Positions 9,906-18,928 of a stretch of 64,000 bases of DNA are shown one piece after another. Source of the DNA: Flaccisagitta enflata (taxonomy: Eukaryota); contig OZ231126.1 in assembly GCA_965153355.1 (NCBI GenBank), positions 30,814,001 to 30,878,000 on the forward strand, given 5' to 3'. How positions within the stretch are numbered: the first letter of the stretch is position 1; each line of letters starts with the position of its first letter. The translations under genes and the position numbers were made by a program. The notes beneath the pieces are model-generated. The model saw nothing but the letters and a program-made list of their open reading frames with translations, did not search any database and was not told the DNA's origin.

Positions 9906-10142
9906 ATGGATACGGAAAAGGCCCGGACGAGCTTGTTGGAGGCGAAGGATAAATGCTTGGAGATGATCTCGTTGGTGGAAAATTCGAAGATCGAAGCTGC
10001 TGAAGGCGAAGACGAAGCCAAAATCAAAAGAATACAAATGATGGAAATTTCCAGACTCGAGACACAAGCAGACGAATTACTGCTCATGGCTTTTGGACTG
10101 CTGGGGAATGTCCACTTTAAATGCTCCAGTTTGGAGGGGTAG
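9906..10142 (+). CDS. Putative 78-aa helical protein (or terminal exon), paralogue of 18710-18928
   Basis: Non-repetitive coding-like ORF MDTEKARTSLLEA...ISRLETQADELLLMA. Acceptor-like TTCCAG at 9897-9902 (alternative GTGCAG at 9797-9802). Similarity to the 18710 ORF. Confidence 0.6.
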   Translation: MDTEKARTSLLEAKDKCLEMISLVENSKIEAAEGEDEAKIKRIQMMEISRLETQADELLLMAFGLLGNVHFKCSSLEG

Positions 10143-11340
10143 AGAGAGAGAGAGAGAGAGAGAGAGAGAGAGAGAGAGAGAAAAGATTTAAATGAGTACG
10201 ACAAATAACTTAGGCATTTCTTCACATTGAAGATCTTGTGAGACTAAAACTAGTATATTGATGTAAAACTACTGCTTGTTTATTTAATGATGGGAAGTCT
10301 TGTACCATAAAAATATGGATACGAAAACGAAATGATACTTTGGGCTGTAACTTTTTGAGTCTTTGTTTTAACAACCATAAAAACGCTCACGTCCGAGTGA
10401 TCTAATGAATCTCATTCTCAAGTCTGTTGTTGCATCTCAAAAATTTAATTGTCCGCAGACGCTCAATTTTTTCTGACTTTTTTGTAATCTTAAAATGAAA
10501 CGAAACTCAATGCAATGCCCTATGGCGCGTCACATGTTCAGATAAAATAAAACGATTGCTTTTTGTCGTATGCAGTGATAATCAAAATCGATGTTCAAGG
10601 CCGCTATCTGCCTATGAATATAGAAATGAAGTTTCGTTACTTGTGCCTTTTTAGTAGCTTTCTTTACTCAAGAATGGATCTTTAATTGCATGTGAATGAT
10701 CGTATCCTAAAGCTTGGAAATTTTCTGACGATTAGAGTATTTAAATACCGCAAACAGTAAAAAAATCACAATTCGAGATTACCAAAAATCCTGCTTTACT
10801 GAGTATTACTGTTAGAGTTATATAAAATCAAAAGTGGGTTTTGTTTTTTAAAACCTGCCATTTCACCATCCCCCCTTTTTCCTGCCCTTTCGCATCGTGT
10901 TCGCCGGCATTAGATTTTATTACCGTAGTGCTGACTGTATTTATTTTGCCCTTTGTTTTGCTTTGTTGTGTTCTTTTTTTTATAATTGGGGTTTGCTCTT
11001 ACCCCAGAAATTATATAATACTTAGATGATAGTAAGTTAACTACCGATTTACACTTATTGATCCTCATTTATTTACGAAACAAACTAACCAGAAACAAAT
11101 TAACAAAGAAAGACAAGCAAACAAAAGAACAAAAAAAAACCTCTTTGAATCTCTCATTGCCAACATCGGCATGAAAACAAATACTTTATTTTGATACTAC
11201 AACCTCTGATTATTTAATAATTGAGAAGATCTTGTGTACATCCGTTAAACTTGTTTTTTATTTCAGATTTGTTTTAAGTAATTAAGTAATAAAGCAGGGA
11301 CAAAAAAAAGGCAAATAAACGAACAAGCAAAAAGGCAACG

Positions 11341-11524
11341 ATGCCTCCAAAGGCGGCGGACAAGGGCAAGGCAGGGAAGGCGGCGCCAGCGGCGGCGAAA
11401 AAGCCTAAGGAAGGCGGCGGCGGCAAAGCCAAGAAGAAGAAGTGGTCAAAGGGAAAAGTCAGAGACAAACTCAACAACTTGGTCCTCTTTGACAAACCAA
11501 CCCTCGAAAAACTCATGAAGGAAG
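11341..11524 (+). CDS. RPS25: 40S ribosomal protein S25 (eS25), coding exon 1
   Basis: MPPK...[27 protein letters not shown] signature; phase-1 donor G|GTGAGA. Confidence 0.97.
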
Positions 11525-12936
11525 GTGAGATTGATTGATTGATTCATTGCGTGTTTTATTTATCAATTGTTCGTTTGTACAACAACTGGGTCCTCAAGGA
11601 CCTAGGATATAACACCTACAACAACAACAAAGTAAACAACAACAACAACAACAACAACAACAACAACAACAACAACAACAACAACAACAACAACTGATGT
11701 CAATTTTGATAAGCTATGTAGCAAGAAACAGGCTAAAATCAATTCATTGTTTATGTCACACTTATGAAAAGTGCAACAAAAAGTAACTTACAAAAAAATC
11801 TTGATAAAACCAGTTTTTTACAAATAGACTGAACTTATAATTTTTGAAAAAACCTTCAAAAGATACTCATTCCTGTATAGTATATGCTTCCACTCATATA
11901 CTCACTAATCCACTTTTAGGTACGACCTAATTTTATTGGTTAAGAAAATCAAAACCTATGGATAAGTAATTTTTATGCAGAAAATAAGTCTTTTGTCTTA
12001 ACTTATTGAAAAAAGATAAAGAATATTTCCATTCATGGTATTAGGTTAAGGGAAAAAGTTAGCGCTGACTTCTGGCATTGACCGGGATAGTCAATTGTCA
12101 AGTGTGACGGACAGACCGACGGACGGACCGACAAAGCGGGGTGTAGAGTCGCGTGGCACGCGACTAAAAATGATTTGTCTAATTTTGACATGTAGCAGTA
12201 TATTATACTTTAAATGACATTATCATTGAAATTTCCTTTTTTTTCCTTATTTAGTACAGACATAAACTAAGGTACACGCCAAATTTGAGACCTTAATATC
12301 AATTCGGGCTGAAGAGAGTGTCCTAATGTGTTATCACCCTGTTACACTTATGTTACTCTGATTATACTAGAAATTAACATAGTTTTACATATCTTAAAAC
12401 TTAAAAAAAATTTTGAAATGATCCAAAAGAGTATCAAATTCTGAGCATAGGGCTTGAATTTTAAGCTAGTTGATGCAACCATTATCAAATTATCATATTT
12501 TTATCAATATTAACGCATTCAGGCACCTAATTTCAACCAGTCCTGTTTAACGTGGAAACTGCCTAAATATCTTATGACCTTCAAAAACGATAGTTAAAAT
12601 GGTAGCAAACAAGTTCAAAAACATGACAAATCTAGTCACCACTGATTTTCAAAATAAGAAGAGGGGAAACTGGAAATTAGCCAGAAAAGCAAGTATTTTT
12701 TAGAAAATAGTTAGAATAAGCTAGAAATTAGCTAGAATCAGCTAGAAATGACTAGATAAGCTAGATTTTTTCAAAAAATTGCTAGAATTAGCTAGAAATA
12801 GCTAGATTACGCTGCTGGGTGATTCTCAATAAATCGCCAGTTTATTAACTAGATCCCCAAGTTCTGTAGCTATGACCTGTAATTAGCTAGAAATCGCAAT
12901 AAAATCGCTAATCTCTCACAAGAGATGCTTCCAAGA

Positions 12937-13264
12937 TAGCCTAACAACAATTAATGCGATGTCATAGAAAAGTTCTCTACCAAAGGGACACGGCCCAAAA
13001 TCATGTTTACAGAGGGTTCATGAAAGAAATTTAGCCCCAGAACCCCTATAAATTGGCGCCGCCACCCACCCCCTTTCCCATGGTAAAACATAGGCAAAAA
13101 TCTTTCCTATGCATTTTCTATGGGATATGAGGGGTGTGGCGGCGGCAATTTTTAGAGGTCCCAGGACCAAATTTTTGTTGTGGTTTATCTGTATACATGA
13201 TTTTGAGTCATATCCCTCTGATAGAGAACTTTCCTATGACTCAACATGAATTCTTGTTATGCTA
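12937..13264. mobile_element. 328-bp palindromic MITE with 8-bp TSD (hAT-like) in the RPS25 intron
   Basis: TSD TTCCAAGA at 12929-12936 and 13265-13272; TAGC..GCTA ends; the two halves are inverted copies. Confidence 0.85.
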
Positions 13265-13503
13265 TTCCAAGATGGCGTGACTAACTGAGACTGACAGCGT
13301 CTCTTCAATCACTTCATTAGCGTACGTCTGAAAGATGAACTGCAAGATATGATTCTTTTTTTTTTTTATCTCAATTTATGCATTTTCTTGAGAATCAAAT
13401 TTCTCTAAACTACTGACAATCAGGATAGCAATTCACGATACGGTTTGGACCAGTGAATAAAATAAAATAAAATAAAATAAAAGCTGCGGTCCGATCAAAT
13501 CTA

Positions 13504-17252: not shown

Positions 17253-17446
17253 TTCCCTCGTACAAGTTGATCACTCCTTCCGTCGTCTCTGAGAGATTGA
17301 AGATCCGCGGAAGTTTGGCGCGTTTCGCTTTGAAGGAGTTGGAGTCTCAAGGACTGATCAAACGCGTGGTCACACATCACGCGCAAATCATCTACACGCG
17401 CAACACCAAACCCGGGGAAGTTGTAGAGGAAATTAAAGAGGATTAA
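17253..17446 (+). CDS. RPS25: 40S ribosomal protein S25, coding exon 2 (missed by the ORF track)
   Basis: Acceptor [61 protein letters not shown]...ED*. Spliced CDS is 378 nt (125 aa). AATAAA at 17728. Confidence 0.97.
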
Positions 17447-17859
17447 GATAAAACTGTTTTTGAAGAAGTTTGAGAAGAGACATTTTGTTTTTAGGTAAAG
17501 TCTAACAATGACTTGTGCCTATCATTTTCTCTCTCTCTTTCTTCCTCTGTCTTGTTTCTGCCCAACTTGCCTTTATAACCTTGGAGTGCAATTTCATTTG
17601 ACCTTTTGTTTATATCTTTAATCATATATGACGCACTGAAAATTACCATAGAATTTGCTACCCGAGCCAGATAAGTCGTGAAATTTATAAAATGAAATTT
17701 AATGAAAATTTTTGTTTTAATATTTTCAATAAAACTACCAACAACCATATTTTGCATGAATTGACTTGCATATACCAGTTTTAAATTTCAATCCTTTATT
17801 TAACAGCTGAAAAAATATGCCAAATTCAACAAAAAACTCATTTTGTCAAGGGACTATGG

Positions 17860-18007
17860 CTCATTGAAAATTTTAAATTTGCATAGAAAATCAAAATATC
17901 AAGAAAACAAAAACATAGCGCGATTCCTAAAAGATCAACTGAGGGCGCTATGTTCTTATTTTAATGATATTTGGATTTTTTATGCAAATTTAAAATTTTC
18001 AGTGAGC
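17860..18007. repeat. About 150-bp imperfect palindrome (MITE core)
   Basis: GCTCATTGAAAATTTTAAATTTGCATA...TATGCAAATTTAAAATTTTCAGTGAGC. Confidence 0.75.
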
Positions 18008-18709
18008 AGTTACTGAAATGATTGTCACTATTTTATTCACTTTTTAGTCTCATCAGAATTGAATATTTTTCAATCTTTTTGCATTTTTGTCCTTTGCCGG
18101 TGACAGATGAGTTTCCTCATGTAAGTTTACAATTTAAAGTACAAAGAAATAAACACAAGCATTGACCTAAGCAAAAATAGTAACATGAATAGTAACTTAG
18201 TTCTCTGGGTAAATTCCTCTTACTTAAATTTCAGTGCGTCATATATAAATTCATCATGGCGGATTTTTGAAGAAAAAAAAACCAAACGAATGAAAATACC
18301 ACTCACGTCATCTCGAGTCATCTCGCGTCGTTATCCAACAAACAAAAAATCCAATTATTTATTTACCATCTATCATGACCTATTTATTACATTCATTCAT
18401 CATCTTCGCGAGAAAATATCTAATTTGCAAGCCTTTTTCTTCGTTTTGCCGACTTGATGAAATTATCATTTACGTAATTTAAGAGATTATCATTTAAAAT
18501 TTTTCGATTTAAATTTTTCTTGGTCTCAATTGAACTGTTGAACTGTTTACTTGGCTTCAGAATAAAAGGGGTTGGTTGATTTAGAAATTGTTTGGTGCTT
18601 TATTGACAAGAAAAAGGAAACTGCGGAAAAAAAAACTAGAAAAAAGAACAATTCATATCAAACAACCGAAACATAACAAAAGCCAAAGTAACGAAAAAAA
18701 TTGATAAAG

Positions 18710-18928
18710 ATGGCTGAAGGTGGCGCAACCAAAGCGACTTTGTCCGAGGCGATGAAACAGAAACAAGAGGCGCTTAACGAATCCGAGGCCGAAACAAAAG
18801 AACAAATGGAATTGAAACAAAAACAAATGGCGTCGATTTCCAAAGTTGAAAATGACATCGATGATCTCTTGGCTTTCGCCAAAAAAGCCATGAACAGAAA
18901 GCCTGCGGAAGATACTCAACAACCATGA
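18710..18928 (+). CDS. Putative 72-aa helical protein, paralogue of 9906-10142
   Basis: Strong start context AAAGATGG; E/K/Q/A-rich ORF standing out from the AT-rich flanks; upstream acceptor-like TTGGCTTCAG at 18551-18560. Confidence 0.7.
   Translation: MAEGGATKATLSEAMKQKQEALNESEAETKEQMELKQKQMASISKVENDIDDLLAFAKKAMNRKPAEDTQQP

Follow-up and report, generated by a model that had tools for sequence, protein, structure and literature searches.

The window analysed here, a stretch of 64,000 nucleotides, carries RPS25 on its plus strand between two small open reading frames, ORF1 (9906-10142, 78 aa) and ORF2 (18710-18928, 72 aa), which a sequence-only reading had taken for a pair of diverged, paralogous microprotein genes. 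The coordinates, the plus strand and the lengths of both ORFs hold, as does their spacing, ORF1 lying 1,198 nt upstream and ORF2 1,263 nt downstream of the RPS25 CDS, with 8.6 kb separating the two ORFs on the same strand. The features of the region are the following:

9696 to 9799, no strand assigned: (TG)52 microsatellite in the last intron of the putative SMYD-family gene, located some 100 nt before the acceptor (sequence)
9901 to 10142, plus strand: last coding exon of a putative SMYD-family (SET + MYND) gene (protein C-terminus match, tblastn, RNA contig)
10143 to 11265, presumed plus strand: RNA-covered tail, assigned as putative 3′ UTR to the SMYD-family gene, opening with an (AG)20 microsatellite (metatranscriptome contigs)
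11341 to 11524, plus strand: RPS25 coding exon 1, with donor G/gtgaga after 11524 (Pfam Ribosomal_S25, E 2.3e-14)
17253 to 17446, plus strand: RPS25 coding exon 2 with the stop codon, acceptor cag/TT at 17252/17253 (Pfam Ribosomal_S25, E 1.9e-21)
18710 to 18928, plus strand: ORF2, complete CDS of a candidate conserved 72-aa microprotein, predicted to form one long alpha-helix (relatives, public contigs, AF2)
19154 to 19159, plus strand: AATAAA, possible polyadenylation signal for an ORF2 mRNA, 226 nt past the stop (motif)

RPS25 exon 1 reached an RNA depth of up to 15,642, and RNA contigs that stop at 11524 continue with letters corresponding to positions 17253-17282 of the window. The metatranscriptome runs in which this stretch occurs carry a marine label. 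In runs X1 and X2, contigs covered 10193-10504 and 10448-11265 at a depth of 3-12 and, since long stretches of the RPS25 intron were at depth 0 in the same runs, this coverage represents RNA and not carried-over DNA. According to these contigs the putative SMYD 3′ UTR reaches the RPS25 5′ end; with a length of about 1.1 kb, it would abut the RPS25 promoter. No contig joining this UTR to RPS25 was seen in runs X1 and X2.

ORF1 and the C-terminus of SMYD-family proteins

When longer proteins were searched with ORF1, three were matched at E ≤ 1 among 82 candidates, with E values from 6e-25 to 6e-20 and at the extreme C-terminus. ORF1 corresponds to the C-terminal 78 residues of the 592-599-aa proteins P0010-P0012, with 68-81% identity and 96-99% of ORF1 covered. 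As determined by tblastn of these proteins against the window, residues ~515-593 are encoded at 9897-10133, and no other part of them was detected in the 64,000 nt. The ORF1 exon is preceded by an acceptor, cag/GTG at 9900/9901, that is used in metatranscriptome contigs, so that exon 9901-10142 encodes a valine plus the 78-aa ORF1 and terminates with the stop TAG at 10140-10142. An RNA contig of 371 nt (record 9 of run X2) aligns to 9901-10130 and carries, 5′ of 9901, 124 extra letters that do not match 9800-9900. The frame of ORF1 is open well upstream of its ATG (9654-10142 from stop to stop) because of the (TG)52 microsatellite located there. Given that the tblastn match is confined to the last residues and that the acceptor is spliced, we place the remaining exons of the SMYD-family gene outside the window; they would lie more than 9.9 kb upstream. 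The P0010-P0012 orthologues come from contigs of 1,983-3,087 nt, which are too short to hold a 9.9-kb intron and are therefore inferred to be spliced mRNAs.

The SMYD family (SMYD1-5) comprises protein lysine methyltransferases and is recognised by a SET domain that a MYND zinc finger interrupts. In both orthologues scanned, P0011 and P0010, the SET domain (E of 1.7e-11 and 1.1e-11, respectively) and zf-MYND (1e-5 and 3.2e-5) scored above the Pfam cut-offs, with MYND (140-181) nested within SET (106-402) as in members of the SMYD family, of which SET plus MYND is given as the defining core in a passage of PMC4521844. Comparison of P0011 with PDB sequences yielded 27 matches, solely to SMYD3, SMYD2 and SMYD1 (best E 1.1e-12). 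The earlier statement that neither ORF belongs to a recognised family was thus correct for ORF2, for which no Pfam or PDB family was found, but not for ORF1, which matches a known family (SET + MYND, SMYD) as the C-terminal exon of one of its proteins.

Like SMYD1-3, whose structures they match over the SET/post-SET region (E about 1e-12), the orthologue proteins extend past the post-SET into a helical C-terminal region. In SMYD proteins this region is described, in the parts of PMC3105404, PMC3125274 and PMC4414169 that deal with it, as TPR-like, autoinhibitory and HSP90-binding. Unlike in SMYD1-3, the C-terminal part of the orthologues is preceded by a long poly-Glu/Asp linker, and it shows no sequence alignment to the C-terminal domain of SMYD1-3; alignments with PDB sequences end at about residue 446 of 592. 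Pfam scans gave no match of a TPR model to this part, and a language-model (Atlas) search returned TPR-type leads at 0.85-0.88, which are under the 0.9 bar and are leads only. AF2 modelling of P0011 predicted C-terminal helices at 497-518, 522-546 and 551-577, with 10-residue-block mean pLDDT values of 56-86 within a full-length model that is poor as a whole (mean pLDDT 44, pTM 0.26). On this model, the ORF1 exon would encode the last two helices of the C-terminal helical region.

Taken together, the sequence comparisons indicate that ORF1 is the 3′-terminal exon of a putative multi-exon SMYD-family gene, and we rejected it as a stand-alone microprotein gene: it is an exon spliced to upstream sequence and the tail of SET + MYND proteins of about 595 aa. 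The proposal that both ORFs are free-standing genes consequently fails, and only ORF2 stands alone. One may ask whether a free 78-aa protein is made besides the SMYD tail, from an internal promoter or by initiation at the methionine located one codon into the exon, which is invariant in 5/5 full-length orthologues. Short contigs with this part alone do exist (P0007 and P0009); however, the short contigs are fragments of 517-556 nt, one such "orthologue", P0008, is part of P0010 and demonstrably runs into SMYD sequence, and the RNA contig of this locus extends past the acceptor into further 5′ letters. We consider such a free product very improbable.

ORF2 as a candidate microprotein gene

With one exception, a 109-aa read-through, the relatives of ORF2 (36-97% identity) have lengths of 66-72 aa. 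A search among proteins of near length gave matches at 58-97% identity in 5/5 cases, and an exhaustive hmmsearch of 1.84 billion representative proteins with the ORF2 profile retrieved four at E ≤ 0.001. Three of these are 66-71 aa long and start with MAEGG, and the remaining one, of 2,201 aa, gave weak matches over five stretches; no longer form of ORF2 was present in that collection. In the collections searched, the family was found on environmental contigs only. Across 12 sequences, 18 columns are invariant, including M1-A-E-G-G, I50-D-D, L54, F56 and A57, and the invariant core reads K-V-x3-I-D-D-x-L-x-F-A-x-K.

Several frames are open in the ORF2 region, on either strand, with antisense ORFs of 114 aa and 77 aa overlapping it, and its relatives are automatic gene calls on environmental contigs. 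These facts would suit an untranslated ORF2, that is, a chance-open frame within a purine-rich UTR or a non-coding RNA conserved for another reason. Against it, relatives with as little as 36% identity still have the MAEGG start and a length of 66-72 aa, and changes within the family are conservative (K/R, L/M/V, E/D), with an invariant core versus a variable tail. Moreover, the exact plus-strand protein was found on 17 public contigs from three sources, whereas both antisense ORFs are absent from the same collection. An untranslated ORF2 is therefore improbable in our view, and the gene looks like an independent, lineage-restricted small gene for an acidic protein of 72 aa.

AF2 modelling of ORF2 predicted a single continuous helix over residues 5-62 (pLDDT 82), in place of the helical hairpin proposed earlier. 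The protein is rich in E/K/Q and has neither signal peptide nor membrane segment, and the C-terminal third of the helix carries an a/d hydrophobic stripe (I43, V46, I50, L53, A57). As a single long alpha-helix, ORF2 would expose its N-terminal E/K/Q-rich half to solvent as a rod, and its invariant amphipathic C-terminal segment (KVExxIDDLLxFAKK) would bind a partner or self-associate. HSBP1 and SVBP are examples of free-standing small proteins of 60-90 aa with a helical or coiled-coil structure, which ORF2 resembles in size, in its E/K/Q-rich composition, in lacking a signal peptide or membrane segment and in its predicted long helix. However, the best Pfam match of ORF2, Mt_ATP-synt_B, scored 14.6 bits versus a cut-off of 21.7; when six family members were compared with Pfam none reached a cut-off (best E 0.0041) and no family was common to more than two of the six. 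The best E against PDB sequences was 0.47, a Foldseek search at E ≤ 10 returned 0 matches and the Atlas language-model search gave no usable match. With no match in Pfam, PDB or Foldseek, membership of ORF2 in any named family is unsupported. The description of ORF2 as a small helical protein that is conserved, apparently unannotated and of no recognised family is thus supported by its relatives as well as by the Pfam, PDB and exhaustive searches.

Likeness between ORF1 and ORF2

The ungapped alignment of 31 residues with 12 identities, on which the pairing of the two ORFs had been based, was reproduced with a BLOSUM62 score of 60; over the N-terminal 8-mer, 3/8 residues are identical. None of 3000 and none of 5000 plain shuffles reached 60, while 32/5000 Smith-Waterman (SW) alignments did so with shuffles that keep the hydrophobic/polar pattern. 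With HMM scores, plain shuffles reached the observed value in 0/20,000 cases in each direction, and pattern-preserving shuffles in 20/20,000 and 80/20,000. Two-sequence BLASTP gave no alignment at E ≤ 100. An all-vs-all comparison of window ORFs, which took in 65 of the 79 ATG-ORFs of at least 60 aa (14 low-entropy ORFs being excluded), yielded 12/2,056 pairs with a score of at least 60, most of them repeats or low-complexity sequence. At the DNA level, where the earlier reading saw no evident repeat, no in-register similarity between ORF1 and ORF2 was found, and the best local alignment is purine-rich and in a different register from that of the proteins.

True paralogy would mean common ancestry of the ORF2 family and the terminal SMYD exon, the exon having been duplicated into a small gene or a microprotein captured as an exon. 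It is favoured by searches with the family HMMs against 2,083 six-frame window ORFs, in which each ORF was the sole non-self match of the other (E of 0.0049 and 0.0024), by the plain shuffles in both directions and by column-shuffled profiles, 0/300 of which reached the observed hhalign score. The matched segment coincides with the most conserved segment, the invariant core, of both families, and the gap required to bring the N-terminal match into line with that of the core lies where the SMYD family has a loop that varies in length. The common strand, the distance of 8.6 kb, the similar lengths (78 vs 72 aa) and the invariant methionine as second residue encoded by the SMYD exon point in the same direction.

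The profile alignment, however, spans 19-24 columns only, with hhalign probabilities of 18.5%, 19.5% and 2.4%, and pattern-preserving shuffles reach the score in 0.1-0.6% of cases. The absence of a BLASTP alignment and the out-of-register DNA match argue against kinship, and the ORF2 profile retrieved no SMYD protein at E ≤ 0.001 from the 1.84 billion representative proteins. Past the helix the ORFs show no match, with FGLLGNVHFKCS in one and KKAMNRKP in the other, and ORF2 is predicted to form one helix versus two in the SMYD tail. Finally, an acceptor-like AG had been noted before each ATG: that of ORF1 is a genuine acceptor, spliced in RNA, but that of ORF2 lies in purine-rich sequence without a pyrimidine tract and has little resemblance to one. 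On this evidence we regard paralogy as unlikely, though it deserves consideration.

Two routes to such paralogy can be drawn. In one, a local duplicate of the last SMYD exon may have become free-standing, with the methionine at its start as initiator. In the other, the upstream SMYD gene may have gained its terminal exon by capturing a copy of an ancestral gene for a microprotein.

As the similarity amounts to 19-31 residues of amphipathic helix with hhalign probabilities of 2.4-19.5%, an old duplication of ORF1 and ORF2 under purifying selection is possible but unproven; over so few residues, likeness does not establish common origin. The likeness is that of two amphipathic helices and is more probably due to convergence or chance than to common descent. 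Overall, we favour as the probable account of the locus that ORF1 is a SMYD terminal exon, that ORF2 is an independent small gene and that their mutual likeness is more probably convergent or fortuitous than inherited.

These results correct a tempting reading: a conserved ORF of small size, whose "orthologues" were themselves short, proved to belong to a large and well-known family of enzymes as a tail exon, and this link emerged only once longer proteins were searched. The ORF2 family is a genuine-looking small protein, conserved and with an invariant helix of 15 residues; provided that it is translated, an animal lineage with poor annotation gains an uncharacterised microprotein. It is rather doubtful that the ORF2 family is an offshoot or donor of the SMYD C-terminal exon, a 72-aa version of the last conserved helix of the tail that could act in trans. 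If it were, ORF2 would mimic the regulatory tail helix of a methyltransferase, competing for the partner of that helix or docking on the enzyme, and the locus would be a case of an exon turned into a microprotein gene (or the reverse) with the parent on the other side of RPS25. In this sense, the weak but reproducible likeness of ORF2 to the SMYD tail provides a concrete, testable idea on the origin of such microproteins.

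ORF1 as the probable tail of a SMYD-family gene

The two small frames, ORF1 and ORF2, are on the + strand and flank the ribosomal protein gene RPS25, with the positions and lengths that the sequence-only reading had given them; its spacing to RPS25 agrees as well (1,198 nt on the ORF1 side and 1,263 nt on the ORF2 side). The features are as follows.

9906-10142, + strand: ORF1, 78 aa
11341-11524: RPS25 coding exon 1 (Pfam Ribosomal_S25, E 2.3e-14)
17253-17446: RPS25 coding exon 2 (Pfam Ribosomal_S25, E 1.9e-21)
18710-18928, + strand: ORF2, 72 aa
226 nt past the ORF2 stop: AATAAA

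A near-length search with ORF1 returned four short matches, one of them the window's own call and the other three, on contigs of 517-556 nt, resembling microprotein orthologues. When longer proteins were searched, three of 592-599 aa proved to be 68-81% identical to ORF1 over 96-99% of its length, ORF1 being their extreme C-terminus. P0008, a short match, was rejected as a short orthologue with an "N-terminal extension", as this extension is the preceding part of P0010, one of the long proteins. In both long proteins scanned, Pfam detected, above its cut-offs, a SET domain that encloses a MYND finger, and the 27 sequences of solved structures matched by P0011, another long protein, came exclusively from SMYD3, SMYD2 and SMYD1 (best E 1.1e-12). 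According to PMC4521844, the Smyd family of lysine methyltransferases is defined by a core in which MYND splits the SET domain.

Because the contigs that carry the long proteins are only about 2-3 kb, we infer that these proteins derive from spliced mRNAs. By tblastn, their residues ~515-593 were placed at 9897-10133, and no other part of them was found on either strand of the window; this would put the other exons beyond the window, over 9.9 kb upstream. Mismatch-free RNA contigs from two independent marine metatranscriptome studies begin at, or just inside, an acceptor (cag/GTG at 9900/9901), and one RNA contig of 371 nt carries 124 letters 5' of 9901 that could not be placed on 9800-9900. 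RNA depth is 3-12 from this exon on to 11265. Since RNA crosses the acceptor and coverage continues to 11265, ORF1 is most likely the terminal coding exon (9901-10142) of a SMYD-family gene, with a putative 3' UTR of about 1.1 kb extending as far as the 5' end of RPS25. ORF1 had been taken for a microprotein of no recognised family; it is instead probably the tail exon of a methyltransferase gene of a known kind. Of the acceptor-like AG described before each ATG, the one at ORF1 is used in RNA, and the one at ORF2 does not look like an acceptor because the sequence upstream of that ATG is purine-rich and has no pyrimidine tract. A (TG)52 microsatellite occupies 9696-9799, ~100 nt ahead of the SMYD terminal exon.

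A language-model search with ORF1 gave TPR-type leads at 0.85-0.88, to be read as leads only. AlphaFold, run on a five-sequence alignment, predicted three C-terminal helices (10-residue-block mean pLDDT 56-86) within a whole model that is poor (mean pLDDT 44), and the ORF1 exon would encode the last two of them. PMC3105404, PMC3125274 and PMC4414169 describe the C-terminal domain of SMYD1-3 as TPR-like, as a regulator of the active site and as an HSP90-binding region. The tail of this gene may be its counterpart, although its sequence does not align with those structures.

RPS25 and the surrounding window

Public runs holding parts of the window were marine metatranscriptomes, 12 of 15 such holders being recorded as RNA, and RNA contigs and reads were placed on 9800-16940, beside a long repeat. 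Raw reads of X16, a public run compared with the window, were set aside as belonging to another organism, their match being restricted to a 38-nt conserved piece of RPS25. The RPS25 RNA contigs reach 11524 and go on with letters identical to 17253-17282, which confirms an intron of 5.7 kb. RPS25 RNA depth rises to 15,642, and in the same runs long stretches of the intron are at depth 0. Within this otherwise silent intron there are islands of RNA contigs at 11951-12189, 13385-13862 and 14580-15296, with depth of at most 1,643 and many loose ends, which look like dispersed repeats expressed elsewhere. A (CAA)81 microsatellite (16944-17187) ends ~65 nt ahead of the RPS25 exon 2 acceptor.

At the other end of the gene, low-level SMYD 3' UTR RNA (10589-11265) adjoins the RPS25 5' end, and one contig stops at 11265, at ...atttcag AG. 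Another contig, from RPS25 and with high coverage, begins at 11257, preceded by 10 unmatched letters; these were rejected as a spliced leader, as there is no AG ahead of 11257 and the contig has mismatches to the window at several sites. The SMYD 3' UTR may share a boundary with the RPS25 5' end or read through into it.

The presence of introns and many microsatellites, together with a G+C content of 28-46% in 2-kb windows, shows that the window is eukaryotic. No Rfam family reached its gathering score anywhere in it. A GTCC-type element encoding "...ALSVRPSV..." repeats at 8237-8674, 12033-12191, 31625-31969 and 46158-46514. One long ORF is present in three copies, at 583-1254 (- strand), 34636-35699 (+ strand) and 60020-60848 (+ strand), with stop-to-stop pieces of 110-236 aa. 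Aligned to each other, these copies score 253-468; none has a Pfam family above cut-off, and they probably represent some kind of mobile or multi-copy gene. A 256-aa open frame at 62031-62801 (- strand) contains a Peptidase_M13 domain (neprilysin/ECE-type, E 1e-58) and an HExxH motif in its translation.

Likeness between ORF1 and ORF2

The ungapped match of 31 residues on which the two frames had been called paralogues was reproduced, with 12 identities and a BLOSUM62 local score of 60. In a shuffle test of this alignment, a score of 60 was reached by 0 of 3000 plain shuffles (mean 28, sd 5.3) and, in a repeat, by 0 of 5000 (Gumbel p 2.5e-4), and by 32 of 5000 shuffles that keep the hydrophobic/polar pattern. 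The last of these results weighs against the match, as does two-sequence BLASTP of ORF1 against ORF2, which produced no alignment at E<=100. As further evidence against it, when the window's ATG-ORFs of at least 60 aa were compared all against all (65 of 79, after 14 low-entropy ORFs had been dropped), 12 of 2,056 pairs scored at least 60; among those with higher scores are the three copies of a repeated ORF as well as frames derived from repeats. A hand estimate, the Gumbel p of 2.5e-4 multiplied by 2,056 pairs, amounts to ~0.5 chance pairs per window; this is probably too pessimistic, because most window ORFs lack such a composition, and the HMM search of the window gives a lower figure. A match at the DNA level (score 17, reached by 1 of 1000 shuffles) was rejected as support, being purine-rich with gaps whose lengths are not divisible by three; it is also off register, with an offset of ~11 codons as against 5 in the protein alignment.

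At the profile level the match is reduced to 19-24 columns, Q-M-x-x-I-S-[KR]-[VL]-E-x-x-x-D-[DE]-L-L-x-x-A. Common descent of the ORF2 family and the SMYD tail would explain why none of 300 column-shuffled profiles attains the hhalign score (maximum 17.7 versus 21.75), and why the HMM of each family has the other ORF as its sole non-self match among the window's 2,083 six-frame ORFs (E 0.0049 and 0.0024), scores that 0 of 20,000 plain shuffles reach in either direction. However, shuffles that preserve the pattern reach those HMM scores in 20 of 20,000 and 80 of 20,000 cases, and the hhalign probability, 18.5% and 19.5% when only the tail is used, falls to 2.4% against the full-length SMYD profile. 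Moreover, the ORF2 profile retrieved no SMYD protein at E<=0.001 from the whole library of 1.84 billion representatives, no match extends beyond the single shared helix, and the predicted architectures of ORF2 and the SMYD tail differ. On balance we hold common descent to be unlikely, though well short of negligible. The likeness itself is real and coincides with the core that each family conserves; a likeness of this size is also possible between two amphipathic helices of separate origin. The observation made from the sequence holds and its interpretation does so in part, the paralogy of ORF1 and ORF2 and any co-regulation with RPS25 being unproven.

ORF2 as a candidate family of small proteins

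That ORF2 is of no recognised family is borne out by the database searches. Its best Pfam score was 14.6 bits, below the cut-off of 21.7, and in six members of its family no Pfam family passed its cut-off or was common to more than two; a PDB sequence search gave nothing better than E 0.47, a search of the Atlas yielded no usable match, and Foldseek found 0 matches to the ORF2 model in the PDB, as is expected of a lone helix. AlphaFold predicted a single uninterrupted helix over residues 5-62 (mean pLDDT 82, above 95 in the core), that is, a rod and not the helical hairpin that had been proposed.

In a near-length search, all five matches to ORF2 showed 58-97% identity, four of them being proteins of 70-72 aa and the fifth a read-through form of 109 aa. 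The latter, P0003, resembles the family as far as about residue 67, beyond which it continues into unrelated sequence; a lost stop, a retained intron or an assembly error might account for this. When HMMER was run exhaustively with the family profile on 1.84 billion cluster representatives of every protein length, only four proteins were returned at E<=0.001: three of 66-71 aa that start with MAEGG, and one of 2,201 aa matched weakly in five stretches. In contrast to ORF1, no fused or longer form of ORF2 was found in that search. Seventeen contigs, drawn from three collections and at most 2,149 nt long, carry the exact ORF2 protein; JGI metagenome contigs gave no match to the family patterns or to an exact 36-mer of ORF2, and two antisense ORFs overlapping it have no record in the collections searched.

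Twelve sequences of the family share 18 invariant columns, including M1-A-E-G-G, I50-D51-D52, L54, F56 and A57, and have a variable C-terminal tail. Of the residues of ORF2, 14 are acidic and 11 basic, and its C-terminal third carries an a/d hydrophobic stripe. Judged from its sequence, ORF2 is plausibly a free-standing conserved small protein and a candidate new family, in which the charged N-terminal half would form a solvent-exposed helix and the invariant amphipathic segment may provide a surface for binding or self-association.
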